Shown: piece by piece, positions 1 to 22,253 of the stretch
How the letters are laid out: the number at the start of each line of letters is the position of its first letter
How positions within the stretch are numbered: the first letter of the stretch is position 1
From: Balanoglossus misakiensis
Taxonomy: Eukaryota; Animalia; Hemichordata
Length of the DNA stretch: 64,000 nucleotides
Direction: 5' to 3'
Assembly (NCBI GenBank): GCA_040954595.2
Contig: CM082587.2
Span: forward strand, 11,897,262 to 11,961,261
The notes under the pieces: model-generated
What the model saw: only the letters and a program-made list of their open reading frames with translations
Told to the model about the DNA's origin: nothing
Databases searched by the model: none
Program-made: the position numbers and the translations under genes

Positions 1-3000
1 TGAAATGAACTCATCTGCTGTGGGCCAGTTTATTGGTGGCAGTTGAGCTGAGGAGAGCACCTTCCTTCCCGGCACGCCACCAAGTAAAGTTCCACGCCGC
101 CCACCACAGATGCCAGCATTCATTCATGCGAGTGAGTGTAATTGCAAATTTGCCTATTCTAGATCTGTAATGGAAATGGAGAAAGTACCTTATATTTTCT
201 GTAAAATAGACATTTAATTGGCAAGCCGTCCTGCATCAATTATGAATTGTGTACATGCACTAAAGCGCCCTCACTGCTGGGTGTGTTGTATGGTCTTTAA
301 CCCTGTTTCAAATTAGAGTACTTTCTGCAATTTCAAGACAGATCTTACGTGCCATTGGAGAGCTCCATTGACTGGTCATTCATACTGTTTTCATTCATTC
401 ATTTCGGCATCAATATATTTTATCTATTCTAGCCAAAGAGCTTGGCACCTGTTGAAATGAACTCATCTGCTGTGGGCCAGTTTATTGGTGGCAGTTGAGC
501 TGAGAAGAGCACCTTCCTTCCCGGCACGCCACCAAGTAAAGTTCCACGCCGCCCACCACAGATGCCAGCATTCATTCATGCGAGTGAGTGTAATTGCAAA
601 TTTGCCTATTCTAGAATCTTACGTGCCATTGGAGAGCTCCATTGACTGGTCATTCATACTGTTTTCATTCATTCATTGCGGCATCAATATATTTTATCTA
701 TTCTAGCCAAAGAGCTTGGCACCTGTTGAAATGAACTCATCTGCTGTGGGCCAGTTTATTGGTGGCAGTTGAGCTGAGGAGAGCACCTTCCTTCCCGGGA
801 CGCCACCAAGTAAAGTTCCACGCCGCCCACCACAGATGCCAGCATTCATTCATGCGAGTGAGTGTAATTGCAAATTTGCCTATTCTAGATTCTTACGTGC
901 CATTGGAGAGCTCCATTGACTGGTCATTCATACTGTTTTCATTCATTCATTGCGGCATCAATATATTTTATCTATTCTAGCCAAAGAGCTTGGCACCTGT
1001 TGAAATGAACTCATCTGCTGTGGGCCAGTTTATTGGTGGCAGTTGAGCTGAGGAGAGCACCTTCCTTCCCGGCACGCCACCAAGTAAAGTTCCACGCCGC
1101 CCACCACAGATGCCAGCATTCATTCATGCGAGTGAGTGTAATTGCAAATTTGCCTATTCTAGATCTGTAATGGAAATGGAGAAAGTACCTTATATTTTCT
1201 GTAAAATAGACATTTAATTGGCAAGCCGTCCTGCATCAATTATTAATTGTGTACATGCACTAAAGCGCCCTCACTGCTGGGTGTGTTGTATGGTCTTTAA
1301 CCCTGTTTCAAATTAGAGTACTTTCTGCAATTTCAAGACAGATCTTACGTGCCATTGGAGAGCTCCATTGACTGGTCATTCATACTGTTTTCATTCATTC
1401 ATTGCGGCATCAATATATTTTATCTATTCTAGCCAAAGAGCTTGGCACCTGTTGAAATGAACTCATCTGCTGTGGGCCAGTTTATTGGTGGCAGTTGAGC
1501 TGAGGAGAGCACCTTCCTTCCCGGCACGCCACCAAGTAAAGTTCCACGCCGCCCACCACAGATGCCAGCATTCATTCATGCGAGTGAGTGTAATTGCAAA
1601 TTTGCCTATTCTAGAATTACGTGCCATTGGAGAGCTCCATTGACTGGTCATTCATACTGTTTTCATTCATTCATTGCGGCATCAATATATTTTATCTATT
1701 CTAGCCAAAGAGCTTGGCACCTGTTGAAATGAACTCATCTGCTGTGGGCCAGTTTATTGGTGGCAGTTGAGCTGAGGAGAGCACCTTCCTTCCCGGCACG
1801 CCACCAAGTAAAGTTCCACGCCGCCCACCACAGATGCCAGCATTCATTCATGCGAGTGAGTGTAATTGCAAATTTGCCTATTCTAGATCTGTAATGGAAA
1901 TGGAGAAAGTACCTTATATTTTCTGTAAAATAGACATTTAATTGGCAAGCCGTCCTGCATCAATTATGAATTGTGTACATGCACTAAAGCGCCCTCACTG
2001 CTGGGTGTGTTGTATGGTCTTTAACCCTGTTTCAAATTAGAGTACTTTCTGCAATTTCAAGACAGATCTTACGTGCCATTGGAGAGCTCCATTGACTGGT
2101 CATTCATACTGTTTTCATTCATTCATTGCGGCATCAATATATTTTATCTATTCTAGCCAAAGAGCTTGGCACCTGTTGAAATGAACTCATCTGCTGTGGG
2201 CCAGTTTATTGGTGGCAGTTGAGCTGAGGAGAGCACCTTCCTTCCCGGCACGCCACCAAGTAAAGTTCCACGCCGCCCACCACAGATGCCAGCATTCATT
2301 CATGCGAGTGAGTGTAATTGCAAATTTGCCTATTCTAGATCTGTAATGGAAATGGAGAAAGTACCTTATATTTTCTGTAAAATAGACATTTAATTGGCAA
2401 GCCGTCCTGCATCAATTATGAATTGTGTACATGCACTAAAGCGCCCTCACTGCTGGGTGTGTTGTATGGTCTTTAACCCTGTTTCAAATTAGAGTACTTT
2501 CTGCAATTTCAAGACAGATCTTACGTGCCATTGGAGAGCTCCATTGACTGGTCATTCATACTGTTTTCATTCATTCATTGCGGCATCAATATATTTTATC
2601 TATTCTAGCCAAAGAGCTTGGCACCTGTTGAAATGAACTCATCTGCTGTGGGCCAGTTTATTGGTGGCAGTTGAGCTGAGGAGAGCACCTTCCTTCCCGG
2701 CACGCCACCAAGTAAAGTTCCACGCCGCCCACCACAGATGCCAGCATTCATTCATGCGAGTGAGTGTAATTGCAAATTTGCCTATTCTAGATCTGTAATG
2801 GAAATGGAGAAAGTACCTTATATTTTCTGTAAAATAGACATTTAATTGGCAAGCCGTCCTGCATCAATTATGAATTGTGTACATGCACTAAAGCGCCCTC
2901 ACTGCTGGGTGTGTTGTATGGTCTTTAACCCTGTTTCAAATTAGAGTACTTTCTGCAATTTCAAGACAGATCTTACGTGCCATTGGAGAGCTCCATTGAC

Positions 3001-6000
3001 TGGTCATTCATACTGTTTTCATTCATTCATTGCGGCATCAATATATTTTATCTATTCTAGCCAAAGAGCTTGGCACCTGTTGAAATGAACTCATCTGCTG
3101 TGGGCCAGTTTATTGGTGGCAGTTGAGCTGAGAAGAGCACCTTCCTTCCCGGCACGCCACCAAGTAAAGTTCCACGCCGCCCACCACAGATGCCAGCATT
3201 CATTCATGCGAGTGAGTGTAATTGCAAATTTGCCTATTCTAGAATCTTACGTGCCATTGGAGAGCTCCATTGACTGGTCATTCATACTGTTTTCATTCAT
3301 TCATTGCGGCATCAATATATTTTATCTATTCTAGCCAAAGAGCTTGGCACCTGTTGAAATGAACTCATCTGCTGTGGGCCAGTTTATTGGTGGCAGTTGA
3401 GCTGAGGAGAGCACCTTCCTTCCCGGGACGCCACCAAGTAAAGTTCCACGCCGCCCACCACAGATGCCAGCATTCATTCATGCGAGTGAGTGTAATTGCA
3501 AATTTGCCTATTCTAGATTCTTACGTGCCATTGGAGAGCTCCATTGACTGGTCATTCATACTGTTTTCATTCATTCATTGCGGCATCAATATATTTTATC
3601 TATTCTAGCCAAAGAGCTTGGCACCTGTTGAAATGAACTCATCTGCTGTGGGCCAGTTTATTGGTGGCAGTTGAGCTGAGGAGAGCACCTTCCTTCCCGG
3701 CACGCCACCAAGTAAAGTTCCACGCCGCCCACCACAGATGCCAGCATTCATTCATGCGAGTGAGTGTAATTGCAAATTTGCCTATTCTAGATCTGTAATG
3801 GAAATGGAGAAAGTACCTTATATTTTCTGTAAAATAGACATTTAATTGGCAAGCCGTCCTGCATCAATTATGAATTGTGTACATGCACTAAAGCGCCCTC
3901 ACTGCTGGGTGTGTTGTATGGTCTTTAACCCTGTTTCAAATTAGAGTACTTTCTGCAATTTCAAGACAGATCTTACGTGCCATTGGAGAGCTCCATTGAC
4001 TGGTCATTCATACTGTTTTCATTCATTCATTGCGGCATCAATATATTTTATCTATTCTAGCCAAAGAGCTTGGCACCTGTTGAAATGAACTCATCTGCTG
4101 TGGGCCAGTTTATTGGTGGCAGTTGAGCTGAGGAGAGCACCTTCCTTCCCGGCACGCCACCAAGTAAAGTTCCACGCCGCCCACCACAGATGCCAGCATT
4201 CATTCATGCGAGTGAGTGTAATTGCAAATTTGCCTATTCTAGATCTGTAATGGAAATGGAGAAAGTACCTTATATTTTCTGTAAAATAGACATTTAATTG
4301 GCAAGCCGTCCTGCATCAATTATGAATTGTGTACATGCACTAAAGCGCCCTCACTGCTGGGTGTGTTGTATGGTCTTTAACCCTGTTTCAAATTAGAGTA
4401 CTTTCTGCAATTTCAAGACAGATCTTACGTGCCATTGGAGAGCTCCATTGACTGGTCATTCATACTGTTTTCATTCATTCATTGCGGCATCAATATATTT
4501 TATGTATTCTAGCCAAAGAGCTTGGCACCTGTTGAAATGAACTCATCTGCTGTGGGCCAGTTTATTGGTGGCAGTTGAGCTGAGGAGAGCACCTTCCTTC
4601 CCGGCACGCCACCAAGTAAAGTTCCACGCCGCCCACCACAGATGCCAGCATTCATTCATGCGAGTGAGTGTAATTGCAAATTTGCCTATTCTAGATCTGT
4701 AATGGAAATGGAGAAAGTACCTTATATTTTCTGTAAAATAGACATTTAATTGGCAAGCCGTCCTGCATCAATTATTAATTGTGTACATGCACTAAAGCGC
4801 CCTCACTGCTGGGTGTGTTGTATGGTCTTTAACCCTGTTTCAAATTAGAGTACTTTCTGCAATTTCAAGACAGATCTTACGTGCCATTGGAGAGCTCCAT
4901 TGACTGGTCATTCATACTGTTTTCATTCATTCATTGCGGCATCAATATATTTTATCTATTCTAGCCAAAGAGCTTGGCACCTGTTGAAATGAACTCATCT
5001 GCTGTGGGCCAGTTTATTGGTGGCAGTTGAGTTGAGGAGAGCACCTTCCTTCCCGGCACGCCACCAAGTAAAGTTCCACGCCGCCCACCACAGATGCCAG
5101 CATTCATTCATGCGAGTGAGTGTAATTGCAAATTTGCCTATTCTAGAATTCTTACGTGCCATTGGAGAGCTCCATTGACTGGTCATTCATACTGTTTTCA
5201 TTCATTCATTGCGGCATCAATATATTTTATGTATTCTAGCCAAAGAGCTTGGCACCTGTTGAAATGAACTCATCTGCTGTGGGCCAGTTTATTGGTGGCA
5301 GTTGAGCTGAGGAGAGCACCTTCCTTCCCGGCACGCCACCAAGTAAAGTTCCACGCCGCCCACCACAGATGCCAGCATTCATTCATGCGAGTGAGTGTAA
5401 TTGCAAATTTGCCTATTCTAGATCTGTAATGGAAATGGAGAAAGTACCTTATATTTTCTGTAAAATAGACATTTAATTGGCAAGCCGTCCTGCATCAATT
5501 ATGAATTGTGTACATGCACTAAAGCGCCCTCACTGCTGGGTGTGTTGTATGGTCTTTAACCCTGTTTCAAATTAGAGTACTTTCTGCAATTTCAAGACAG
5601 ATCTTACGTGCCATTGGAGAGCTCCATTGACTGGTCATTCATACTGTTTTCATTCATTCATTGTGGCATCAATATATTTTATCTATTCTAGCCAAAGAGC
5701 TTGGCACCTGTTGAAATGAACTCATCTGCTGTGGGCCAGTTTATTGGTGGCAGTTGAGCTGAGGAGAGCACCTTCCTTCCCGGCACGCCACCAAGTAAAG
5801 TTCCACGCCGCCCACCACAGATGCCAGCATTCATTCATGCGAGTGAGTGTAATTGCAAATTTGCCTATTCTAGATCTGTAATGGAAATGGAGAAAGTACC
5901 TTATATTTTCTGTAAAATAGACATTTAATTGGCAAGCCGTCCTGCATCAATTATTAATTGTGTACATGCACTAAAGCGCCCTCACTGCTGGGTGTGTTGT

Positions 6001-9000
6001 ATGGTCTTTAACCCTGTTTCAAATTAGAGTACTTTCTGCAATTTCAAGACAGATCTTACGTGCCATTGGAGAGCTCCATTGACTGGTCATTCATACTGTT
6101 TTCATTCATTCATTGCGGCATCAATATATTTTATCTATTCTAGCCAAAGAGCTTGGCACCTGTTGAAATGAACTCATCTGCTGTGGGCCAGTTTATTGGT
6201 GGCAGTTGAGCTGAGAAGAGCACCTTCCTTCCCGGCACGCCACCAAGTAAAGTTCCACGCCGCCCACCACAGATGCCAGCATTCATTCATGCGAGTGAGT
6301 GTAATTGCAAATTTGCCTATTCTAGATCTGTAATGGAAATGGAGAAAGTACCTTATATTTTCTGTAAAATAGACATTTAATTGGCAAGCCGTCCTGCATC
6401 AATTATGAATTGTGTACATGCACTAAAGCGCCCTCACTGCTGGGTGTGTTGTATGGTCTTTAACCCTGTTTCAAATTAGAGTACTTTCTGCAATTTCAAG
6501 ACAGATCTTACGTGCCATTGGAGAGCTCCATTGACTGGTCATTCATACTGTTTTCATTCATTCATTGCGGCATCAATATATTTTATCTATTCTAGCCAAA
6601 GAGCTTGGCACCTGTTGAAATGAACTCATCTGCTGTGGGCCAGTTTATTGGTGGCAGTTGAGCTGAGGAGAGCACCTTCCTTCCCGGCACGCCACCAAGT
6701 AAAGTTCCACGCCGCCCACCACAGATGCCAGCATTCATTCATGCGAGTGAGTGTAATTGCAAATTTGCCTATTCTAGATCTGTAATGGAAATGGAGAAAG
6801 TACCTTATATTTTCTGTAAAATAGACATTTAATTGGCAAGCCGTCCTGCATCAATTATGAATTGTGTACATGCACTAAAGCGCCCTCACTGCTGGGTGTG
6901 TTGTATGGTCTTTAACCCTGTTTCAAATTAGAGTACTTTCTGCAATTTCAAGACAGATCTTACGTGCCATTGGAGAGCTCCATTGACTGGTCATTCATAC
7001 TGTTTTCATTCATTCATTGCGGCATCAATATATTTTATCTATTCTAGCCAAAGAGCTTGGCACCTGTTGAAATGAACTCATCTGCTGTGGGCCAGTTTAT
7101 TGGTGGCAGTTGAGCTGAGGAGAGCACCTTCCTTCCCGGCACGCCACCAAGTAAAGTTCCACGCCGCCCACCACAGATGCCAGCATTCATTCATGCGAGT
7201 GAGTGTAATTGCAAATTTGCCTATTCTAGATCTGTAATGGAAATGGAGAAAGTACCTTATATTTTCTGTAAAATAGACATTTAATTGGCAAGCCGTCCTG
7301 CATCAATTATGAATTGTGTACATGCACTAAAGCGCCCTCACTGCTGGGTGTGTTGTATGGTCTTTAACCCTGTTTCAAATTAGAGTACTTTCTGCAATTT
7401 CAAGACAGATCTTACGTGCCATTGGAGAGCTCCATTGACTGGTCATTCATACTGTTTTCATTCATTCATTGCGGCATCAATATATTTTATGTATTCTAGC
7501 CAAAGAGCTTGGCACCTGTTGAAATGAACTCATCTGCTGTGGGCCAGTTTATTGGTGGCAGTTGAGCTGAGGAGAGCACCTTCCTTCCCGGCACGCCACC
7601 AAGTAAAGTTCCACGCCGCCCACCACAGATGCCAGCATTCATTCATGCGAGTGAGTGTAATTGCAAATTTGCCTATTCTAGATCTGTAATGGAAATGGAG
7701 AAAGTACCTTATATTTTCTGTAAAATAGACATTTAATTGGCAAGCCGTCCTGCATCAATTATTAATTGTGTACATGCACTAAAGCGCCCTCACTGCTGGG
7801 TGTGTTGTATGGTCTTTAACCCTGTTTCAAATTAGAGTACTTTCTGCAATTTCAAGACAGATCTTACGTGCCATTGGAGAGCTCCATTGACTGGTCATTC
7901 ATACTGTTTTCATTCATTCATTGCGGCATCAATATATTTTATCTATTCTAGCCAAAGAGCTTGGCACCTGTTGAAATGAACTCATCTGCTGTGGGCCAGT
8001 TTATTGGTGGCAGTTGAGCTGAGGAGAGCACCTTCCTTCCCGGCACGCCACCAAGTAAAGTTCCACGCCGCCCACCACAGATGCCAGCATTCATTCATGC
8101 GAGTGAGTGTAATTGCAAATTTGCCTATTCTAGAATTACGTGCCATTGGAGAGCTCCATTGACTGGTCATTCATACTGTTTTCATTCATTCATTGCGGCA
8201 TCAATATATTTTATCTATTCTAGCCAAAGAGCTTGGCACCTGTTGAAATGAACTCATCTGCTGTGGGCCAGTTTATTGGTGGCAGTTGAGCTGAGGAGAG
8301 CACCTTCCTTCCCGGCACGCCACCAAGTAAAGTTCCACGCCGCCCACCACAGATGCCAGCATTCATTCATGCGAGTGAGTGTAATTGCAAATTTGCCTAT
8401 TCTAGATCTGTAATGGAAATGGAGAAAGTACCTTATATTTTCTGTAAAATAGACATTTAATTGGCAAGCCGTCCTGCATCAATTATGAATTGTGTACATG
8501 CACTAAAGCGCCCTCACTGCTGGGTGTGTTGTATGGTCTTTAACCCTGTTTCAAATTAGAGTACTTTCTGCAATTTCAAGACAGATCTTACGTGCCATTG
8601 GAGAGCTCCATTGACTGGTCATTCATACTGTTTTCATTCATTCATTGCGGCATCAATATATTTTATCTATTCTAGCCAAAGAGCTTGGCACCTGTTGAAA
8701 TGAACTCATCTGCTGTGGGCCAGTTTATTGGTGGCAGTTGAGCTGAGGAGAGCACCTTCCTTCCCGGCACGCCACCAAGTAAAGTTCCACGCCGCCCACC
8801 ACAGATGCCAGCATTCATTCATGCGAGTGAGTGTAATTGCAAATTTGCCTATTCTAGAATCTTACGTGCCATTGGAGAGCTCCATTGACTGGTCATTCAT
8901 ACTGTTTTCATTCATTCATTGCGGCATCAATATATTTTATCTATTCTAGCCAAAGAGCTTGGCACCTGTTGAAATGAACTCATCTGCTGTGGGCCAGTTT

Positions 9001-12000
9001 ATTGGTGGCAGTTGAGCTGAGGAGAGCACCTTCCTTCCCGGCACGCCACCAAGTAAAGTTCCACGCCGCCCACCACAGATGCCAGCATTCATTCATGCGA
9101 GTGAGTGTAATTGCAAATTTGCCTATTCTAGATCTGTAATGGAAATGGAGAAAGTACCTTATATTTTCTGTAAAATAGACATTTAATTGGCAAGCCGTCC
9201 TGCATCAATTATTAATTGTGTACATGCACTAAAGCGCCCTCACTGCTGGGTGTGTTGTATGGTCTTTAACCCTGTTTCAAATTAGAGTACTTTCTGCAAT
9301 TTCAAGACAGATCTTACGTGCCATTGGAGAGCTCCATTGACTGGTCATTCATACTGTTTTCATTCATTCATTGCGGCATCAATATATTTTATCTATTCTA
9401 GCCAAAGAGCTTGGCACCTGTTGAAATGAACTCATCTGCTGTGGGCCAGTTTATTGGTGGCAGTTGAGCTGAGAAGAGCACCTTCCTTCCCGGCACGCCA
9501 CCAAGTAAAGTTCCACGCCGCCCACCACAGATGCCAGCATTCATTCATGCGAGTGAGTGTAATTGCAAATTTGCCTATTCTAGATCTGTAATGGAAATGG
9601 AGAAAGTACCTTATATTTTCTGTAAAATAGACATTTAATTGGCAAGCCGTCCTGCATCAATTATGAATTGTGTACATGCACTAAAGCGCCCTCACTGCTG
9701 GGTGTGTTGTATGGTCTTTAACCCTGTTTCAAATTAGAGTACTTTCTGCAATTTCAAGACAGATCTTACGTGCCATTGGAGAGCTCCATTGACTGGTCAT
9801 TCATACTGTTTTCATTCATTCATTGCGGCATCAATATATTTTATCTATTCTAGCCAAAGAGCTTGGCACCTGTTGAAATGAACTCATCTGCTGTGGGCCA
9901 GTTTATTGGTGGCAGTTGAGCTGAGGAGAGCACCTTCCTTCCCGGCACGCCACCAAGTAAAGTTCCACGCCGCCCACCACAGATGCCAGCATTCATTCAT
10001 GCGAGTGAGTGTAATTGCAAATTTGCCTATTCTAGATCTGTAATGGAAATGGAGAAAGTACCTTATATTTTCTGTAAAATAGACATTTAATTGGCAAGCC
10101 GTCCTGCATCAATTATGAATTGTGTACATGCACTAAAGCGCCCTCACTGCTGGGTGTGTTGTATGGTCTTTAACCCTGTTTCAAATTAGAGTACTTTCTG
10201 CAATTTCAAGACAGATCTTACGTGCCATTGGAGAGCTCCATTGACTGGTCATTCATACTGTTTTCATTCATTCATTGCGGCATCAATATATTTTATCTAT
10301 TCTAGCCAAAGAGCTTGGCACCTGTTGAAATGAACTCATCTGCTGTGGGCCAGTTTATTGGTGGCAGTTGAGCTGAGGAGAGCACCTTCCTTCCCGGCAC
10401 GCCACCAAGTAAAGTTCCACGCCGCCCACCACAGATGCCAGCATTCATTCATGCGAGTGAGTGTAATTGCAAATTTGCCTATTCTAGATCTGTAATGGAA
10501 ATGGAGAAAGTACCTTATATTTTCTGTAAAATAGACATTTAATTGGCAAGCCGTCCTGCATCAATTATGAATTGTGTACATGCACTAAAGCGCCCTCACT
10601 GCTGGGTGTGTTGTATGGTCTTTAACCCTGTTTCAAATTAGAGTACTTTCTGCAATTTCAAGACAGATCTTACGTGCCATTGGAGAGCTCCATTGACTGG
10701 TCATTCATACTGTTTTCATTCATTCATTGCGGCATCAATATATTTTATCTATTCTAGCCAAAGAGCTTGGCACCTGTTGAAATGAACTCATCTGCTGTGG
10801 GCCAGTTTATTGGTGGCAGTTGAGCTGAGAAGAGCACCTTCCTTCCCGGCACGCCACCAAGTAAAGTTCCACGCCGCCCACCACAGATGCCAGCATTCAT
10901 TCATGCGAGTGAGTGTAATTGCAAATTTGCCTATTCTAGAATCTTACGTGCCATTGGAGAGCTCCATTGACTGGTCATTCATACTGTTTTCATTCATTCA
11001 TTGCGGCATCAATATATTTTATCTATTCTAGCCAAAGAGCTTGGCACCTGTTGAAATGAACTCATCTGCTGTGGGCCAGTTTATTGGTGGCAGTTGAGCT
11101 GAGGAGAGCACCTTCCTTCCCGGGACGCCACCAAGTAAAGTTCCACGCCGCCCACCACAGATGCCAGCATTCATTCATGCGAGTGAGTGTAATTGCAAAT
11201 TTGCCTATTCTAGATTCTTACGTGCCATTGGAGAGCTCCATTGACTGGTCATTCATACTGTTTTCATTCATTCATTGCGGCATCAATATATTTTATCTAT
11301 TCTAGCCAAAGAGCTTGGCACCTGTTGAAATGAACTCATCTGCTGTGGGCCAGTTTATTGGTGGCAGTTGAGCTGAGGAGAGCACCTTCCTTCCCGGCAC
11401 GCCACCAAGTAAAGTTCCACGCCGCCCACCACAGATGCCAGCATTCATTCATGCGAGTGAGTGTAATTGCAAATTTGCCTATTCTAGATCTGTAATGGAA
11501 ATGGAGAAAGTACCTTATATTTTCTGTAAAATAGACATTTAATTGGCAAGCCGTCCTGCATCAATTATTAATTGTGTACATGCACTAAAGCGCCCTCACT
11601 GCTGGGTGTGTTGTATGGTCTTTAACCCTGTTTCAAATTAGAGTACTTTCTGCAATTTCAAGACAGATCTTACGTGCCATTGGAGAGCTCCATTGACTGG
11701 TCATTCATACTGTTTTCATTCATTCATTGCGGCATCAATATATTTTATCTATTCTAGCCAAAGAGCTTGGCACCTGTTGAAATGAACTCATCTGCTGTGG
11801 GCCAGTTTATTGGTGGCAGTTGAGCTGAGGAGAGCACCTTCCTTCCCGGCACGCCACCAAGTAAAGTTCCACGCCGCCCACCACAGATGCCAGCATTCAT
11901 TCATGCGAGTGAGTGTAATTGCAAATTTGCCTATTCTAGATCTGTAATGGAAATGGAGAAAGTACCTTATATTTTCTGTAAAATAGACATTTAATTGGCA

Positions 12001-13953
12001 AGCCGTCCTGCATCAATTATGAATTGTGTACATGCACTAAAGCGCCCTCACTGCTGGGTGTGTTGTATGGTCTTTAACCCTGTTTCAAATTAGAGTACTT
12101 TCTGCAATTTCAAGACAGATCTTACGTGCCATTGGAGAGCTCCATTGACTGGTCATTCATACTGTTTTCATTCATTCATTGCGGCATCAATATATTTTAT
12201 GTATTCTAGCCAAAGAGCTTGGCACCTGTTGAAATGAACTCATCTGCTGTGGGCCAGTTTATTGGTGGCAGTTGAGCTGAGGAGAGCACCTTCCTTCCCG
12301 GCACGCCACCAAGTAAAGTTCCACGCCGCCCACCACAGATGCCAGCATTCATTCATGCGAGTGAGTGTAATTGCAAATTTGCCTATTCTAGATCTGTAAT
12401 GGAAATGGAGAAAGTACCTTATATTTTCTGTAAAATAGACATTTAATTGGCAAGCCGTCCTGCATCAATTATTAATTGTGTACATGCACTAAAGCGCCCT
12501 CACTGCTGGGTGTGTTGTATGGTCTTTAACCCTGTTTCAAATTAGAGTACTTTCTGCAATTTCAAGACAGATCTTACGTGCCATTGGAGAGCTCCATTGA
12601 CTGGTCATTCATACTGTTTTCATTCATTCATTGCGGCATCAATATATTTTATCTATTCTAGCCAAAGAGCTTGGCACCTGTTGAAATGAACTCATCTGCT
12701 GTGGGCCAGTTTATTGGTGGCAGTTGAGCTGAGGAGAGCACCTTCCTTCCCGGCACGCCACCAAGTAAAGTTCCACGCCGCCCACCACAGATGCCAGCAT
12801 TCATTCATGCGAGTGAGTGTAATTGCAAATTTGCCTATTCTAGAATTACGTGCCATTGGAGAGCTCCATTGACTGGTCATTCATACTGTTTTCATTCATT
12901 CATTGCGGCATCAATATATTTTATCTATTCTAGCCAAAGAGCTTGGCACCTGTTGAAATGAACTCATCTGCTGTGGGCCAGTTTATTGGTGGCAGTTGAG
13001 CTGAGGAGAGCACCTTCCTTCCCGGCACGCCACCAAGTAAAGTTCCACGCCGCCCACCACAGATGCCAGCATTCATTCATGCGAGTGAGTGTAATTGCAA
13101 ATTTGCCTATTCTAGATCTGTAATGGAAATGGAGAAAGTACCTTATATTTTCTGTAAAATAGACATTTAATTGGCAAGCCGTCCTGCATCAATTATGAAT
13201 TGTGTACATGCACTAAAGCGCCCTCACTGCTGGGTGTGTTGTATGGTCTTTAACCCTGTTTCAAATTAGAGTACTTTCTGCAATTTCAAGACAGATCTTA
13301 CGTGCCATTGGAGAGCTCCATTGACTGGTCATTCATACTGTTTTCATTCATTCATTGCGGCATCAATATATTTTATCTATTCTAGCCAAAGAGCTTGGCA
13401 CCTGTTGAAATGAACTCATCTGCTGTGGGCCAGTTTATTGGTGGCAGTTGAGCTGAGGAGAGCACCTTCCTTCCCGGCACGCCACCAAGTAAAGTTCCAC
13501 GCCGCCCACCACAGATGCCAGCATTCATTCATGCGAGTGAGTGTAATTGCAAATTTGCCTATTCTAGATCTGTAATGGAAATGGAGAAAGTACCTTATAT
13601 TTTCTGTAAAATAGACATTTAATTGGCAAGCCGTCCTGCATCAATTATGAATTGTGTACATGCACTAAAGCGCCCTCACTGCTGGGTGTGTTGTATGGTC
13701 TTTAACCCTGTTTCAAATTAGAGTACTTTCTGCAATTTCAAGACAGATCTTACGTGCCATTGGAGAGCTCCATTGACTGGTCATTCATACTGTTTTCATT
13801 CATTCATTGCGGCATCAATATATTTTATCTATTCTAGCCAAAGAGCTTGGCACCTGTTGAAATGAACTCATCTGCTGTGGGCCAGTTTATTGGTGGCAGT
13901 TGAGCTGAGGAGAGCACCTTCCTTCCCGGCACGCCACCAAGTAAAGTTCCACG
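1..13953. repeat. Tandem satellite array, left arm; mix of 452-bp (MITE-filled) and 272/274/275-bp (empty) monomers
   Basis: TGAAATGAACTCATCTG recurs at 1, 453, 727, 1001, 1453, 1725... (periods 452, 274, 274, 452, 272). Monomers are near-identical and head-to-tail. The array breaks after ...GTAAAGTTCCACG at 13953. Confidence 0.98.
161..345. mobile_element. MITE-like non-autonomous element (representative copy; present in every 452-bp monomer)
   Basis: 161-188 AGATCTGTAATGGAAATGGAGAAAGTAC matches the reverse complement of 318-345 (AGATCTGTCTTGAAATTGCAGAAAGTAC) at 23/28. AGATCT is repeated 179 bp apart. The segment is absent from short monomers. TSD length is ambiguous (AT, GATC or AGATCT) because the site is palindromic. 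Confidence 0.85.
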
Positions 13954-15746
13954 TGCATTCCTGGCCCTGGTTTTATTTATGTTTACAGACAATATTGCAT
14001 TTTTGTACAAGTATTTTAATCAACTATAAATTTTGAATGTGTCATTTACCTGAACCGGTCATGTTGACCAGAATGATACATTTCTGCCTTCACTCACCCT
14101 ATAAATATGTGATTGAGACATAGGTCATTTGCATAAGCTAACATACCAGAAAGTAAGCATATCTGTTGTTTTCCCTGTGTCACTGCCATCAAAGTAAAAA
14201 TTAGACGTTGTGTAGAGCAAACTCCAATTTTTTGTTCTCAATAAACATGGATGAATTACATAGAATGTGTTTGTTGTTTACAGTCTTTAAATGACACATT
14301 AGATTATGCACTTTACAAAACGTTTCTGAGAAACAAGTGACTAACTAGTTTCTTTCCACTGTGGCCAACGTGGTTCACTGTTTGTGTCAGAATCTCTCTG
14401 TTTTGCAAGGATTTTGAAATCATAGTGGTGACATGCATAGTGAAAATCAGCTACTTTCAAATGTCCGTCATGTTCATGCTGTAATTGAATTTTCAAAGCT
14501 GGGCTGGCGTGTTTTTTCTTATTTACATAAGTATCACACTTTATACATGTATCTTCATGGGGTTTTTTGAGTCCCGTATTTAGGTCCTCTCTCACAATTT
14601 TACGAAATATCGTATAACTGACAGTTGTTCTTCCCAGAAGAGATTGGTTGGTTATGAACTCTCGGTGTAACTGCGATATACTGTGGTCCGGCGCCAGGTA
14701 CGGTTTAAATCGAGGATTCCTGCAGTAGTGAGATTCTACAATTCTGTGCCTGCGTACGTGTTCAGTGATATCAGTCAGCAAATTTGGATTGAGTTTCCGA
14801 CGATGCCCTTTGTGTCGGCCCCTTGCATCTGGCATCAGACCAGTAAAGTTCCATGTGCATTCCTGGCCCTGGTTTTATTTATGTTTACAGACAATATTGC
14901 ATTTTTGTACAAGTATTTTAATCAACTATAAATTTTGAATGTGTCATTTACCTGAACCGGTCATGTTGACCAGAATGATACATTTCTGCCTTCACTCACC
15001 CTATAAATATGTGATTGAGACATAGGTCATTTGCATAAGCTAACATACCAGAAAGTAAGCATATCTGTTGTTTTCCCTGTGTCACTGCCATCAAAGTAAA
15101 AATTAGACGTTGTGTAGAGCAAACTCCAATTTTTTGTTCTCAATAAACATGGATGAATTACATAGAATGTGTTTGTTGTTTACAGTCTTTAAATGACACA
15201 TTAGATTATGCACTTTACAAAACGTTTCTGAGAAACAAGTGACTAACTAGTTTCTTTCCACTGTGGCCAACGTGGTTCACTGTTTGTGTCAGAATCTCTC
15301 TGTTTTGCAAGGATTTTGAAATCATAGTGGTGACATGCATAGTGAAAATCAGCTACTTTCAAATGTCCGTCATGTTCATGCTGTAATTGAATTTTCAAAG
15401 CTGGGCTGGCGTGTTTTTTCTTATTTACATAAGTATCACACTTTATACATGTATCTTCATGGGGTTTTCTGAGTCCCGTATTTAGGTCCTCTCTCACAAT
15501 TTTACGAAATATCGTATAACTGACAGTTGTTCTTCCCAGAAGAGATTGGTTGGTTATGAACTCTCGGTGTAACTGCGATATACTGTGGTCCGGCGCCAGG
15601 TACGGTTTAAATCGAGGATTCCTGCAGTAGTGAGATTCTACAATTCTGTGCCTGCGTACGTGTTCAGTGATATCAGTCAGCAAATTTGGATTGAGTTTCC
15701 GACGATGCCCTTTGTGTCGGCCCCTTGCATCTGGCATCAGACCAGT
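13940..15746. repeat. 902-bp tandem duplication (two copies)
   Basis: GTAAAGTTCCA(C/T)GTGCATTCCTGG occurs at 13941 and 14843. Both copies end ...GGCATCAGACCAGT. Two substitutions noticed between copies. AGT microhomology at the junction. Confidence 0.95.
14341..14835 (-). pseudogene. 5'-truncated duplicate of the transposase N-half ORF (its last 164 codons)
   Basis: Identical to the C-terminal 164 aa of 15243-16205 except R->K (GLRKP/GLKKP). Created by the 902-bp duplication. Confidence 0.85.
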
Positions 15747-16199
15747 TGAACAGTGCATCATTTTGCTTAGAACGGTTCTAGTCCGCCTCTCACTAATGCC
15801 AAATAATTTCAGGAATGCATTTTTGCAGACAGTAACCGTTTCACCGCCTTCATTCACCAGGTGATAACGAACCGATTTCTTGTGTGACTTCATCTGTATA
15901 TCCATCAGTTTGTAGAGCATCAAGTTCTGTTCATTATACACGCGACCATCAAAATATTTTCTCGTGGTGCCTAAAACATGCGTACTCCCAAGCTTCCGCA
16001 GACAATTCCCTTGAACGCAGGCGCATTCCAAGGAAAGACTGTCAATATCTGGAAAAGGGCGATTTTTCCTTGGTTTTTGTCTCGGACACGTCTTTTTAGA
16101 ATTCCTACGTGGCTTGTTGGCTCGAGCTGACAGTTCGGTTCTGCGTTGCTGCCACACAGGAATGGGTTCCCACGCATAAGCAACTCCCCGGCAGGCCAT
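15243..16199 (-). CDS. Sola1-like transposase N-terminal half (Cys/His-rich, putative DNA-binding), 318 aa from first ATG
   Basis: Motif series CxC..C, VCKNAFLKLFGIS, DARGRH, ESHYCR..YL, YTIFRKI, KPHEDTCIKCD, H..H...A matches the region that normally precedes the catalytic core in Sola1-type transposases. The ORF is intact. Minus-strand AATAAA candidate near 14875. Confidence 0.75.
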   Translation of the reverse strand: MACRGVAYAWEPIPVWQQRRTELSARANKPRRNSKKTCPRQKPRKNRPFPDIDSLSLECACVQGNCLRKLGSTHVLGTTRKYFDGRVYNEQNLMLYKLMDIQMKSHKKSVRYHLVNEGGETVTVCKNAFLKLFGISERRTRTVLSKMMHCSTGLMPDARGRHKGHRRKLNPNLLTDITEHVRRHRIVESHYCRNPRFKPYLAPDHSISQLHREFITNQSLLGRTTVSYTIFRKIVREDLNTGLRKPHEDTCIKCDTYVNKKKHASPALKIQLQHEHDGHLKVADFHYACHHYDFKILAKQRDSDTNSEPRWPQWKETS

Positions 16200-16370
16200 G
16201 GTCACAGCTGAAGTATTTGTTCAAGTACTGACTGACTAAACGCGGCATGGAACAAACGAACGAACGAACGAACGACTTCACGTTCGGAAAAAAAATCGTT
16301 GCGAGCTGTTGGGTGCCTCTATAGTTGTCGGCAACCGTTCTTTTTTATTGCTAAACAATGCTGTCAGAGC
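16200..16370. promoter_or_regulatory. Putative bidirectional promoter between the two transposase halves
   Basis: 171 bp between divergent ATGs (16199 on -, 16371 on +). Contains ACTG x2-3, (GAAC)n at ~16258-16273 and TTCGGAA at 16283. Function is inferred from geometry only. Confidence 0.45.
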
Positions 16371-17384
16371 ATGGAAGGTGTGGTGGAAAACGAACAGAGG
16401 TTTTGTACGACCAACGATTGGATGGTGCTACATATGGACTTCCACAAGTCATTGCCGGTTCCTAAACTCAGCTCTGAAGACTTTTACTTTAAATCGAAAT
16501 TGCAAATGAAGCTCCTTGGAATTTACAACGGGACAACGGAAAAGATGCATTGTTATGTATGGACAGAGCTCGATAGCAGAAAGTCTCCCGATGAAGTTAT
16601 TACCTGTCTAAATCACTTTTTTTATAACTCGGGTGTGACCAGCAGACATGCAGTTATTTACAGCGACAACTGCCGTGCCGAATTCAAGTGTGGGAAGTTA
16701 ATGTTTTACTATGACTATCTGTTACGAAAGGGCGTGTTTCGACGAATTGACTATAAAACTCTTGTGGCTGGACACACGTACTCCACCTGTGACCGAGTTT
16801 TTGCGTCCATTGAAAGGCATGCAAGTCGTTTCCAGAGTATAGAGACACCTCACGATTGGACATCTGTGATTCGAGGATCTTCTCTGAATGGGAACATTGG
16901 AGTTACGGAGATGACTCACAGAGACTTTTTCAATTATTCTGATTTCCTGAAAAATGAGTACGTTGTGCGTTATGCAGATACAAACAATGTAACTTTTTAC
17001 TACCAAGCCATGCACTATTTTAATTTTGGAGAAGGAGAAAGGCTTGATACCGACGGCAACCTCAGAACATTTAGTCATGCAGATAAAGTTTGGGTGAGAA
17101 CATCTCTAGATCCAAGCGAGACCCCGATTGTAGTCGACTTTAGAAAGAAGAAGCAGAACCGGCGTTTACAAGATTGTACGCTGAACAAACTTTATCAGGA
17201 ACGTCGACCACTGGCGAGCAAAGTTTGGCGGGATCTTCAGAGTTTAGCCAAAAATTACCTGTCTCCGGAGGCAATAGAATTTTATAGGAATCTACCGCTT
17301 CAGGAGAGTAGTGGCACCTCTGCAGACCCGTACGCCTTTCATGATGATGACGACGACGATGATGATGATATGGGCGGTGGTTGA
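16371..17384 (+). CDS. Sola1-like transposase catalytic (DDD) half, 337 aa from first in-frame ATG, acidic tail
   Basis: MDFHKSLPVPKL...FYFKSKL...YVWTE...DEVITCL...IYSDNC...LVAGHTYSTCDRVFASIE: three Asp in the typical Sola-like context (D-F, SDNC, GHTxxxCD). Ends in a poly-Asp run. Confidence 0.82.
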   Translation: MEGVVENEQRFCTTNDWMVLHMDFHKSLPVPKLSSEDFYFKSKLQMKLLGIYNGTTEKMHCYVWTELDSRKSPDEVITCLNHFFYNSGVTSRHAVIYSDNCRAEFKCGKLMFYYDYLLRKGVFRRIDYKTLVAGHTYSTCDRVFASIERHASRFQSIETPHDWTSVIRGSSLNGNIGVTEMTHRDFFNYSDFLKNEYVVRYADTNNVTFYYQAMHYFNFGEGERLDTDGNLRTFSHADKVWVRTSLDPSETPIVVDFRKKKQNRRLQDCTLNKLYQERRPLASKVWRDLQSLAKNYLSPEAIEFYRNLPLQESSGTSADPYAFHDDDDDDDDDMGGG

Positions 17385-17484
17385 ACAAACTGTCCTTTTC
17401 ATGACGACAGTGATTTTGGATATTTGATGTGCGTGCACAGTTTATATGTAATATTTTCACACGAACGAGTTTTGACTGAATTTG

Positions 17485-17570
17485 ATTAAAGAATGTACTC
17501 GATAATTAACAAATGTGCTGAATCGTGGTTATTATGTTGTTAATTTTTGTTTGTTTGTTTGTTTGTTTGT
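17485..17570 (+). terminator. Candidate poly(A) signal with downstream GT-rich tract
   Basis: ATTAAA at 17485-17490, ~100 bp after the stop, followed by (TTTG)n at ~17546-17570. Confidence 0.4.
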
Positions 17571-17702
17571 AAACAATTTCCGTTCATTCAACTGGCTACA
17601 AAGTTGGATTTTTGTACTGGGAAGCGATAAACTCGCACATCAAAACCGGGGAGACTCGATCATTTTTCCCTGCAGGTAGCCTGAAAAGCACCCGGGCAGA
17701 GA

Positions 17703-17776
17703 TTACGTCATATATGGTCCACTTTAATACGAAATTATGCAAATGTGACATTTCACGGAAACGGCGTATATAAAAG
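17703..17776 (+). promoter_or_regulatory. Pol II promoter of the SET gene: CRE-like site, octamer and TATA box
   Basis: TTACGTCA 17703-17710, ATGCAAAT 17737-17744, TATAAAAG 17769-17776, ~90 bp upstream of ATG 17868. Confidence 0.6.
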
Positions 17777-17867
17777 CGACCCTGGGCTATTGTTCGGAAT
17801 GCGTCATCGACGAGAGAGTGACTGATAATTCTTCTACCTCGAGTCAACCATTCTGTATATACTGAAC

Positions 17868-19194
17868 ATGGCTAGCTGGCGCAGGAAGAGACAAGGCAAT
17901 GTGCGGTCTGTAATCAACGAACGGCACCGCTCAGTTCAGTGTCCCTTTCTTCAAAAGTGGATCGGTGAGCAATTGGTATTTTCAGGTCGTTCAGAGGATG
18001 AAGTCCAGTCCAGTACTGTATTTGAGAGCTACAAATGTTGGGTTGAAAACTATTCGTCGGCGGACAATCAAGTAATGATTATGGTTACTAAAGCTCGATT
18101 TTTCAAGGTGAGAATGATCGCATTTTTCTTCCCCCCCCCCCTCCCTCCCCCAAGGGACTCGTTTTCTGTCTCTTTTAAACCTGTAACTTAACGAAAAGGA
18201 AGTTTTTCACATATCTCTTTGTTGACACTATAGCAATTTGGAGCGCGGATGCTTCAAGAGAATAGCGTTACCAAATCAAAGTCGGCCGGGGTTAATATTT
18301 ATAGAGGTGTTCGTCTGAAAGCTGGTTCGCGAAGAATCTCAACGGGGAAACCTGAGCACAGTGTACTTCAGACCAGGGCAAGGGCATTTCTTGATGACGC
18401 CAGCGTGACCGTTCCGATCGAGGTAAGAATGGTGTTTTGTTTGGACTAGGACAATAGAACGTTGCAATGAGTGTGTCAATGGGTGTCCAAGTGCAAACGT
18501 GGTCGGCTTCTGTCCACAAATGCCATTAATTTTAGGCAGGATTTATAAAATTGTCAATGAAGAATACAAAAATGAAAAACAATAGTTAATAGCAAACGGG
18601 TAGGATTGCAAGGGCTTGTAAAACGGTACACACTGTACCAGGAAGTTTGCAACACTAATGAAGAATGTATATGATATATTTAGGTGAGAACTGTTCGCGA
18701 TCGCCGGGACGCAGGACGGTGCGCGTTTTCGACGAGGGATCTTCAAGCCTGGAACGTCGTCTGCGAATACCGGGGCACGGTTATTAGCGTTGAAGAAGCT
18801 AGTCGGCGTGATGAACTTTACAGGGCAGAGGGGAAACGACCACGCATGTTTCATCTCTACATTGGAAAGAGACACGTTGTGTGAGTGTATCACTTAGTCG
18901 AATATATGGTCATATATTGCAAAGCATCTGTCGAAATAGAAAACGTAATATTGTCTATATTTTCCTCATTAACGCAGCATTGACGGATACGATGTCCCAG
19001 CCGGTGAAGAAAATTTAGCGGGCCTAATAAATCACAGTCAGCAGAACGCCAACTTGGTACCGGTTCGGATCGGAGAGCGCCTGGTTTTCTTTGCAACCAG
19101 GAATCTTTGTCAGGGAGTAGAGCTTTTGTATGATTACGGTGACGGGGGTGAAGAGGATTTCTTCAGTGGTTCTCAAACTTTTCCTGAAAATTAA
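17868..19194 (+). CDS. Winged-helix-like + SET-domain lysine methyltransferase (SETD8/PR-Set7-like), 4 exons, 280 aa
   Basis: Exons 17868-18107, 18234-18422, 18684-18880, 18978-19194 with GT-AG introns (GTGAGA, GTAAGA, GTGAGT donors) join in frame (843 nt). SET motifs: GRCAFSTRD, VCEYRG, IDG, AGLINHS, FFATRNL..GVELLYDYGD. The N-terminus (VFESYKCW...FFKQF...IYRGVRLK) resembles an RFX/D5-type winged helix. Confidence 0.85.
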
Positions 19195-20101
19195 GGCATT
19201 AACACATCAACGCTTCGGGATGTCGTAACGGCGGCAAGGCGGGGGGGGGGGGGGGGGGGCGTGAAAATGTTTGTATCAGGAACAAAATTCCCGTGCAAAT
19301 CACCTTGATCCGGGTGGGTGGACTATTCGCGACAAATGTTGAAATCATACAAAGCATTTTACTTAATTAACCCATTTTTTTCATTTATTTGTTTACAGTT
19401 TACAACGTCATAGAGAAGTTGAACTAGAGACTGGATCAGCGTGGGTGACACCATAGTACACCAATGTTTTCTTCAGTTTGATTCAATTGTAATTTAAAAC
19501 TGAGATTGCCTAACGCTTTCCCAGATTTTTTTAACCACTGAGAAACTGTGGGTTTTTTTCTGGGTTTTGGTGCGAGGTGATCTCAGTCAGTGGTGTTAAT
19601 TTAATTAATCATTTTCTTTTCCTATTTACGTCGACTGAAATGTATTTTGATAGGTGATAGTCATACCATAAAAAAATCTTACGGCGCGACTGCCAAAATG
19701 TACATTTATTTGTCCGTTCCAAGTTATTTTGTGTATGTGTGATGGGTGCCGGTGACTGTGCAGGGTTGATTTCCCTAGAGCGACTGTTATATTCGTTTTC
19801 CAACGATGATGAATTTACATGTTATTTGCTTGGCATTTTGACGCAGAGACACTTCTGAAAACACAAACCTATTAATTATGCCACGGGTGTAAATTGATCA
19901 CATTAAAAGAGGCTTTAGACGTTTGCCGCGAGCTCCTGGTGGGCAGAATCTTGTCAGCCCAAATTTGACTATAAGTACATAGCCAATGATGTGACGCTCT
20001 CCCACATCCTTCGCCGCGCCTTTTCGCTGATTTACAGCATCTTGCGTAAACACTGTCATTTGATCTTGCTTGGCAGAAGTCAACTTGCTCTATACTACAT
20101 T

Positions 20102-20467
20102 ATGGCGGCCAAGCTCAACTGCATATCAGATAATGCCAAGGAGCGTTTGAGAGGCATCCTCGCCAGAAGGAGTCGCGTTTCCGGTGACTGTGTGCTCTGG
20201 ACGGGTGCAGCTTGTCGAAACGGCTATGGCTCTATTACGTTCAGAGATGAGAACACTCTAACCGCCTATGTCCATCACATTGCACTCCTAATTAACGGAG
20301 TGCAATTGGTGGGCAGGCGGTTAGAGTGTTCTCATCTTTGCAACGAAAAGCTATGCATCCGCCCAGAGCACATTGTCCAGGAAACGCGACTCCTAAACAT
20401 TTCACGAAAGACGTGCTTTAAATCCCCAAAAGGGGAGTGTCACCACGATCCCAGGTGCCTAAGGTGA
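20102..20467 (+). CDS. His-Cys box (His-Me finger) homing-endonuclease-like protein, 121 aa from ATG
   Basis: CVLWTG...GYG...VHH...SHLCNEKLCIRPEHIVQE...NISRKTC...CHHDPRC matches the zinc-binding loop pattern of I-PpoI-type His-Cys box nucleases. Confidence 0.85.
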   Translation: MAAKLNCISDNAKERLRGILARRSRVSGDCVLWTGAACRNGYGSITFRDENTLTAYVHHIALLINGVQLVGRRLECSHLCNEKLCIRPEHIVQETRLLNISRKTCFKSPKGECHHDPRCLR

Positions 20468-20758
20468 GTAATCCTCTTCTCATTTGATATGTATTGTGTG
20501 ACCCTGCAGTTGAAACGCTTTCATCAATAATTTGCGGCGCGTGGGTAATCTCGGTGTTATTGACAATGCAGCCGGCCCAAACATTTTTAAATTAACACTG
20601 TTTCTGACTGTATTAACGAAATGTCCAATTTGCAAGTAGCCTATAGACAACCCTTTTGAATGAGTTTTGTCTCGTTGAGATTTTATACATAAGGAACAAT
20701 CTAGATTTATTTTAGAAGACACTGTTCTTTTAAAACAGCTAGCATAATACAGCTAAAT

Positions 20759-21126
20759 TTCGGAATTTCCGGACAATTTTCGGAATTCCTTTTAAATTTG
20801 AGAAATTTTTCATCAGATATAAGTGTTACTATTTATTGGACATGTTTTTATCATTGTTTACTTTTTAAGGTCATTCTCATCCCCCCCCCCCCCCCCCAAA
20901 AAAAAGCCGCTTTAGGCTTCATGTTCAGTAAAAAATCTGGAAAGTTCAGCTGAATTTTACACTGATCACACATTTTTGGGAAGGTCTGGCGCAAAATAAA
21001 GGATGACAAATGTAAATCTAATGTCACATTTGTAAACCTCTAAGTATTGTACACTCATTCTATTAAGTATATGCAAATAGTACGGATAATTTTTTCGGAA
21101 TGTGGAATTCCGAAATTAGTTCGGAA
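20759..21126. repeat. Inverted repeat pair and TTCGGAA motif cluster
   Basis: 20767-20789 TTCCGGACAATTTTCGGAATTCC matches the reverse complement of 21104-21126 (TTCCGAACTAATTTCGGAATTCC) at 20/23. TTCGGAA or its complement at 20759, 20779, 21094, 21108, 21120. Confidence 0.6.
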
Positions 21127-21450
21127 CGTGTTAGCAGTGAAGAGATCACCACTGAGGGTTGGAAGGCCTTGCCAGAAATTAACGCGTAAAGTACGCCCTC
21201 ACAGGCCATGTAAACAAGGTCAAATAAGGCCGTCTGGCAAACGAATGATTAATTCAACGCGCCATTTGAGCCGAGCTGAGTTGGTCTGAGTTGCGTATCA
21301 CACAGACTTAGGCTGAATGTCAGTGGAGTAACCAGTCCGTTTTAGATTTACCAATGATGTGAATTTAATTTCTTCACCCAGAAAAACAGAACACAACTTG
21401 TCTGCAACATGATGCTGGAGGTGACACATGACAGAGAAGTGGATCCGCGT

Positions 21451-21787
21451 TGTCAACACAGATGCCAGCATTCAAAAGGGGAGTGCCACCTGCTAAAATC
21501 AACTCATCTGCTGTTGGCCCATTTTACCTGTGGCAACTGTTCAGAGGAGACAACGTTTATTCCGTGCAAGCCAACACGCAATGTTGGGGTCTACCTGTCA
21601 ACACAGATGCAAGCATTCATGTGAGTGAGTATCAGGACTGACCTTGTTTTGCTGAATAATTCATAATGCCTATTTTAGAATTCTTAGAGGCATTTGGAGT
21701 TCATTGCCTGGTCAACCAAACTACACCCCTTAACAGCTGAAACAAAATGCGTATTGTGTTCATTCATTCATTGCTTCAATATATATA
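21451..21787 (+). repeat. Diverged copy of the satellite monomer inside the island
   Basis: Colinear matches: CACCTG..AAAT.AACTCATCTGCTGT.GGCC, GAGGAGA, CACAGATGC.AGCATTCAT, GAGTGAGT, TGCCTATT.TAGAATTCTTA, CATTG.CTGGTCA, TTCATTCATTCATTGC..TCAATATAT. Includes a 24-bp direct repeat at 21451 and 21596. Confidence 0.88.
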
Positions 21788-22253
21788 GGCAACATGAGTA
21801 TCAAGTAGCACTATTTGTTTACGATTGTATTCATGAAAACTTCCCACTAACAATTCCACAGTTAATATTGAACACATTTATCCAACAAGGTCAAAAGAAA
21901 AAGGGAATCTTCTGGTTCCAAAATACGCCACAAATGTGGGTCAACATACAGTGAAATATTATGGTGCTCAAATATGCAACATATCAAATCTGTCTCATCA
22001 AAGTCATGCTTTAAAAAAGAATTGAAAAGGTATTATTTATCCATTTGACTGCTGTATTTTCAGAAGGAAAACAAACTGAATTTGGTTTTTCATGTACAAA
22101 TATTTTCTGTAAAATAGACATTTAATTGGCAAGCCGTCCTGCATCAATTATTAATTGTGTACATGCACTAAAGCGCCCTCACTGCTGGGTGTGTTGTATG
22201 GTCTTTAACCCTGTTTCAAATTAGAGTACTTTCTGCAATTTCAAGACAGATCT

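Follow-up and report, generated by a model that had tools for sequence, protein, structure and literature searches.

A MITE amplified within a satellite array of Balanoglossus misakiensis and four classes of empty site that may record its excision

The satellite array and its MITE

The window analysed here, a stretch of 64,000 nucleotides, is a satellite array with one interruption, an island of 8.1 kb. The left block of the array (positions 1-13953, forward strand) ends within a monomer, and the right block (22100-64000, forward strand) starts within a MITE. The monomer core (as at 345-615, forward strand) is 271 bp long in all 139 complete units, so that variation in monomer length is confined to the MITE site; on average, a monomer is 0.4 bases away from the commonest haplotype. 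When the array was split at a fixed anchor, an insert with inverted ends was found at 95 of 141 monomer sites, at a single site and in one orientation throughout, as the initial annotation had stated. Two-thirds of the satellite units are filled in this way and the other 46 of the 141 sites are empty. The window was also compared with contigs from three sequencing runs, X1 and X2 among them; all three were made from a single sample, which may be the one that was assembled. Joints in X2 that end in GATC were excluded as products of proximity ligation, a reading suggested by GATCGATC joins.

The insert is a MITE: it is short, non-coding and equipped with terminal inverted repeats (TIRs); the array holds no open reading frame of 100 amino acids. 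The first of 95 complete copies in the window occupies 165-341 (177 bp, forward strand) and its termini read CTGT...ACAG. The left TIR (165-188, 24 bp, forward strand) and the right TIR (318-341, 24 bp, reverse strand) match at 19 of 24 positions, compared with a mean of 6.35 and a maximum of 14 in 10,000 shuffles, and these arms are paired in the DNA fold of the element (z -3.29). Two haplotypes one base apart account for 69 and 26 copies. The window holds 95 left ends and 96 right ends, the surplus right end belonging to a fragment at 22100-22249. The high and homogeneous copy number is due to amplification with the array; the recurrence of higher-order blocks described below bears out the earlier suggestion that most copies arose in this manner.

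An AT adjoins both ends of the element, at 163-164 and at 342-343 (forward strand), and we take these to be the left and right copies of a 2-bp target duplication. Copies of the family also lie at unrelated sites outside the satellite, where (AT)n stands in the same place: among the matches listed from 61 contigs, two carry the element with other left flanks and one with an (AT)n right flank, and a contig loose end reads ATATATATAT behind 343. The presence of AT on both sides in two sequence contexts suggests a 2-bp duplication, and a 179-bp element inserted with no duplication would read identically. The initial annotation had described a 179-bp element; the element itself is real, and the larger figure takes in one base of each AT. 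A clean pre-insertion site with a single AT was seen at none of the 46 empty sites. No parent element of the MITE was found.

The unit immediately to the right of the island (22100-22523) combines the minority MITE variant with a monomer carrying C80G, a pairing that occurs in none of the other 141 units. This unit is apparently a recombinant at the junction.

The island, its genes and its right junction

The island (13954-22099) is a non-satellite insert with no matching ends. It is covered end to end by X1 contigs at a depth of about 690-810, compared with 23-55 for rare contigs, which suggests about 15 copies if a depth of about 45 is taken as single-copy, depth being no copy number in itself. 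A 902-bp tandem duplication, whose unit begins with about 12 bp of satellite, spans 13940-15746 (forward strand) and reaches an X1 depth of 1565 against about 770, so it is probably present in most copies of the island. In an X2 contig, a monomer of the diverged type described below is joined to the left end of the island at the same monomer position (14843 and 21573). The left junction of the island may be old or site-specific.

Two intact open reading frames lie head-to-head at 15243-17384 and correspond to the two halves of a DUF7869-type transposase. The N-terminal half (15243-16199, reverse strand, 318 amino acids) stands alone, has no Pfam match and was recognized by homologue search; the catalytic half (16371-17384, forward strand) matches DUF7869 (E 1.4e-14) and keeps three conserved acidic positions, an intact candidate D-D-D set, in a predicted integrase-like fold. 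The model of the catalytic half (pLDDT 82.6) gave weak matches to integrase and IstA cores in Foldseek (TM-scores about 0.3), and the matches listed there included no Hermes, Transib or RAG1 chain. HMMER found 2,597 relatives of the N-terminal half at E 0.001. In the best 150 of these 2,597, 59 of the 65 matches of at least 500 amino acids also carry the catalytic half; the island genes match the two halves of DUF7869 proteins of 550-820 amino acids encoded by a single reading frame, with the three acidic residues conserved. The six best matches are nevertheless stand-alone proteins of 306-347 amino acids, and three stand-alone catalytic halves exist, one of them from Saccoglossus kowalevskii. 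Split relatives show 31-51% identity, and in one of them (L001:1-1608) the halves follow one another in tandem, separated by a stop. The split is therefore conserved and the orientation is not.

We consider the split pair a candidate two-gene variant of a Sola1-like lineage, Sola1 being a label that we presume for the DUF7869 transposase from likeness of motifs. A canonical Sola1 element was rejected for the island genes: the acidic triad is present, but the reading frames are two, on opposite strands, and no TIRs occur in the window. Unlike the Sola1 type as we understand that label, the island has split genes with SET and His-Me neighbours, no TIRs were seen, and an AWWT target does not suit the satellite site. 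A word-index search returned none of 276 candidates as relatives of the N-terminal half, where HMMER did find them, and none of 1,199 as longer relatives of the catalytic half. Loci related to the split transposase were likewise absent from 589 metagenomic stretches searched with a single protein and from 35 viral contigs, and an alignment query of metagenomes gave one in 246, a 2.1-kb contig lacking element ends. Our literature search found no paper on DUF7869.

Further along the island lies a SET-domain gene with predicted introns (17868-19194, forward strand; SET matches at 18684-18878, E 0.003, and 18979-19191, E 1.7e-7), of which several diverged paralogues appear at low depth in X1 contigs. 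It is followed by a zf-His_Me_endon reading frame (19919-20467, forward strand, E 6.7e-13) that contains an imperfect palindrome at 20168-20394 with 26-nt arms 96% complementary. SET genes in transposons are already known (PMC12730594), and the literature seen, the available part of that paper included, held no description of a set combining Sola-like, SET and His-Me genes. At 20756-21140 there is a dispersed repeat of about 380 bp with inverted arms (20767-20789 and 21104-21126), many loose ends and a terminal CAGTG, possibly a decayed CACTG-type element. Rfam gave no match at E 0.1 over 13000-23000. Close to the right end stands a diverged satellite monomer (21484-21784, forward strand), about 70% identical to those of the array; at this place (21450-21800) an older array edge may have given rise to the satellite or been captured by the island. 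Nothing ties the island genes to the MITE ends. An island enzyme was considered as the cutter of the MITE and set aside: the two share no ends, and its model matches compact cores of the integrase and IstA type, weakly, in Foldseek.

At its right junction the island meets a truncated MITE (22100-22249, forward strand; positions 28-177 of the element), which is identical to 26 of the 95 array MITEs and has one mismatch to the other 69. On this identity the initial annotation had built the proposal that the island is an element with TIRs and that the MITE is its internal-deletion derivative, about 30 bp of left end joined to about 150 bp of right end. The letters quoted for the junction (22091-22109) are correct and the 150-bp identity stands. 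However, neither the island as a TIR element nor the derivation gained support, and the make-up of the MITE from two joined parts was not confirmed. A scan of both strands of 13954-22099 that allowed as many as 7 mismatches in 24 found no left TIR, and the island starts in mid-monomer (13953/13954). A comparison of its ends gave a best 30-nt match of 18/30 over about 6,500 offsets, and sensitive local alignment recovered no other similarity between MITE and island (best score 13.5; shuffle means 14.3 and 14.2 for the two strands).

Copies of the MITE family elsewhere read straight through the proposed join at 191/192. Among the matches listed in the 61 contigs, an X1 copy that is preceded by (AT)n can be aligned with 163-243 at about 88% identity (5 substitutions and 5 gaps) and continues into related sequence, and another X1 contig tracks the MITE to 208 before entering sequence absent from the window. 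One X2 contig leads from the left TIR across TATATTTTCT and on to sequence like the island from 21186 onward, at a loose end before 21186. Because these contigs read through the join, the letters just past it belong to the left end of the family, which continues to 205-208 before diverging. Three 15-mers from contig loose ends were also sought in the window; two are absent and one is the MITE itself at 3 mismatches.

It had also been anticipated that other copies of the island might end differently, and on this the runs are divided. The main X1 island contig (depth 775) parts from the window at 22100, and the 24 letters that follow are not MITE. An X2 contig, in contrast, crosses from the island to the MITE and reaches 22120, with one inserted and three other letters; its length fits another join at GTAC. 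X1 and X2 disagree past 22100, and where contigs end next to a repeat of depth 25,000 they are not reliable. Most likely, we conclude, the MITE already existed and was broken at 22100. The island would then be a separate multi-copy segment that probably came into the array by rearrangement, with breaks at 13953 in a monomer and at 22100 in an existing MITE.

That the MITE nevertheless arose by internal deletion of a longer element sharing the right end of the island, be it the whole island or its last kilobase (21186-22249), appears to us quite unlikely. It would account for the 150 bp of identity, for the patchy GTAC/ATATTTT similarity at the join and for the X2 contig that passes from island into MITE; moreover, in view of the X2 contig joining the left TIR to 21186-like sequence, there may be a longer relative, and a direct repeat could account for the 14 letters past the join. 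The fragment at the island end, however, is a young array haplotype (the minority one) beside an island monomer that has diverged by about 30%, and the island has neither a left TIR nor matching ends. The extension of family left ends to 205-208 and the departure of the main X1 contig at 22100 argue against it further, and similarity to the MITE within 21150-21300 is not significant (159 of 1,000 shuffles score as high). Separately, 21186-21260 has a 9-bp motif in common with the MITE interior, not above shuffles, at the place where the X2 contig joins a left end of the family. By itself the derivation claim is ordinary and probably wrong.

Four classes of empty monomer

The 46 empty monomers fall into four indel classes, which the initial annotation had overlooked and which all lie at the MITE site. 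Class A has one A between TAGA and TCTT (as at 612-621, forward strand; 14 of 46; also in X2 and X1 contigs), class T has one T in the same place (886-895, forward strand; 13 of 46; also in an X2 contig), class D is a 272-bp unit reading TAGA-A-TTACG (1612-1621, forward strand; 16 of 46; also in an X2 contig), and class W has AT between TAGA and TCTT (5144-5154, forward strand; 3 of 46; also in an X2 contig). Contigs of X2 contain each of the four joins, with depths of 25,010, 8,700, 6,286 and 4,673 among the rows listed; the joins are therefore not assembly errors.

Class A is followed by class T 11 times, compared with a mean of 1.3 and a maximum of 6 in 10,000 shuffles, and a higher-order block of the form A-T-filled-D recurs 8 times. 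Since the scars recur in blocks, the events were few, at least four, and were copied many times. The three class W units of the window are one repeated block and carry the minor variant C80G that is common to 7 filled units. This nesting leans towards a recent excision and could also have come about by conversion. Classes A, T and D are each one small deletion away from W.

We think it fairly likely that a single old insertion of the MITE was amplified with the 271-bp core to its present 95 of 141 units and was excised at least four times by a hairpin-forming transposase, with the scars becoming the monomer variants, and that the island is separate and broke into the array. The element would have inserted into AGATCT, duplicating the 2 bp AT, and unequal exchange or conversion, rather than 95 insertions, would account for its spread. 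On excision, the first nick would fall one base into each flank, followed by hairpin closure and opening by the host. The hairpin step would exchange the flanking T and A for their complements, which gives class W, and the same product with 1-3 bases trimmed would give classes A, T and D; scarred units would then have been re-amplified into higher-order blocks. The cutting enzyme is likely encoded elsewhere in the genome. The four scar classes at the site also fit the earlier view of the array copies as transposase substrates, which they probably were.

Three models were compared with the observed classes. Plain deletion reaches two of the four (A and T) and a flush hairpin only the same two, while an Ac/Hermes-type hairpin reaches all four with trimming of 0 bases for W, 1 for A, 1 for T and 3 for D, although the hairpin model was given 3-4 bases of slack and only W and D discriminate, by 3 non-templated bases in all. 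In Hermes, the hairpin forms after a nick one base into the flank. The scars resemble those of Ac/Ds, a hAT element, whose footprints have at their centre the complement of the base that adjoins the element and show short trimming (PMC5873905, PMC5499845). All four classes are within reach of such hAT-type footprints and W is the product at zero trimming; the diverged monomer of the island is W-like as well. The small divergence among monomers, taken with the C80G that class W shares with filled units, would fit a recent loss from filled units.

The diverged island monomer counts against this excision reading. Its MITE site reads AGAATTCT, like that of class W, and of the 19 bases surrounding the site 18 agree with W, so that W may be the ancestor that was never filled. 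In that case, entry of the MITE into a AGAATTCT monomer would have replaced 2 bp net, and the classes A, T and D would be scars of excision or repair, or small deletions of W. We regard this as unlikely, though it draws further on the abundance of class W in X2 contigs (depth 8,700) and on the fit of AATT both to the AWWT preference of Sola1 (PMC3845634) and to the ISL2EU target A|AT|T (PMC4482050). Against it, duplication of AT or AATT within AGAATTCT fails to give the flanks AGAT...ATCT, and a loss of 2 bp of target has to be supposed; the three W copies of the window, moreover, are one repeated block within a minor haplotype common to filled units. We know of no eukaryotic DDE family with a 2-bp target loss. 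If the excision reading is right, the diverged island monomer must carry an old scar, and the MITE must have been at this site for long. One X1 joint (depth 46) connects a diverged-type monomer at 21616 to the MITE at 22103, which hints that diverged monomers also carried the element. Old residence at the site fits this joint, the imperfect arms of the MITE and its diverged family copy.

A homing-like process, in which a nuclease cut empty monomers to leave the scars and filled units spread by conversion, for example through the His-Me endonuclease of the island, would explain why two-thirds of the units are filled, why indels cluster at one palindromic site and why a zf-His_Me_endon reading frame lies within the array. 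We hold it to be very improbable: nothing points to cutting by the His-Me domain at the MITE site, copies of the MITE bearing TIRs and AT flanks are dispersed as those of an ordinary transposon would be, and the letters of the scars match flank-hairpin products. Enzyme-free deletion of the stem-loop by replication slippage, suggested by the stem fold (z -3.29) and by the fact that plain deletion can give classes A and T, is hardly credible, as the clean product expected from slippage between the two AGATCT end hexamers, a 6-bp direct repeat, was seen at none of the 46 sites and W and D contain bases unavailable to plain deletion.

Family affinity and significance

With classification rules taken from PMC4455052, the MITE is best left unclassified: judged by its scars it would behave like Ac/Ds at excision, and it appears to be a member of none of the families tested. 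Membership in hAT was rejected, as target duplications of 5-8 bp (PMC4482050) contrast with the 2 bp of this MITE, whose flanks AGAT and ATCT share only AT. The AT duplication is like that of ISL2EU, in the PHIS superfamily, and would fit, with the reservation that a 179-bp element with no duplication reads the same; but the ISL2EU target is A|AT|T and its ends are usually GG (PMC4482050), whereas this MITE has G|AT|C or T|AT|A and CT ends, and ISL2EU was rejected too. A 4-bp AWWT duplication is described for Sola1 (PMC3845634); the (AT)n copies, with ATAT to their left and right, would suit it, but AGAT and ATCT in the satellite do not, and Sola1 was likewise rejected for the MITE. CMC/EnSpm duplications measure 2-4 bp (PMC4482050). 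For this MITE, the 2-bp length fits CMC/EnSpm but its CTGT ends do not, and that family was also rejected. The ends of CMC/EnSpm elements begin with CAC. Hairpins on the flanks have been described for hAT, Transib, RAG and Mutator (PMC5499845). A hairpin-forming family with a 2-bp AT duplication and CTGT ends was not found among the known families checked.

MITEs in satellites or at one site of a tandem array have been reported previously (PMC2581405, PMC3849761, PMC9659126). The array is like the satellite DNA of Messor ants, where many short IRE-130 MITEs share an insertion site and a transposase-bearing element, the Mboumar mariner, is nested within the array (PMC2581405). There, however, the mariner is intact, flanked by TA and inside the MITE, whereas here the island lacks matching ends and truncates a MITE; the available part of that paper mentions no monomer classes that are excision scars. 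The Daphnia elements Pokey and mPok, in rDNA, are similar in that a MITE occupies one site of a tandem array and has copies elsewhere in the genome, but mPok are described as deletion derivatives of an identified parent with a site preference (PMC3849761), while here no parent was found and the outside copies lie in (AT)n. No case of excision scars forming satellite or higher-order variants turned up among the papers listed in the literature searched, which lacks most subscription journals and Repbase Reports.

If the scars are indeed excision footprints, the array would preserve a dated history of transposase action on a satellite, in which hundreds of identical substrates were on offer and several independent cuts took place, each then copied into higher-order blocks. 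If class W is ancestral instead, the insertion chemistry, with its 2-bp loss of target, becomes the odd part. A broader proposal, which we put forward only tentatively and hold to be rather doubtful, is that the higher-order structure of the satellite was written by the transposon, such that a still-cuttable MITE underwent repeated hairpin-type excisions, these produced the length variants, and the breaks helped the turnover of the array; the cutter would then belong to an undescribed lineage joining a 2-bp AT duplication, CTGT ends and flank-hairpin chemistry. Should the excision reading be true, double-strand breaks and monomer variants in satellite evolution would have a source that can be tested, and the chemistry by which a transposon family cuts would have come to light ahead of its enzyme.
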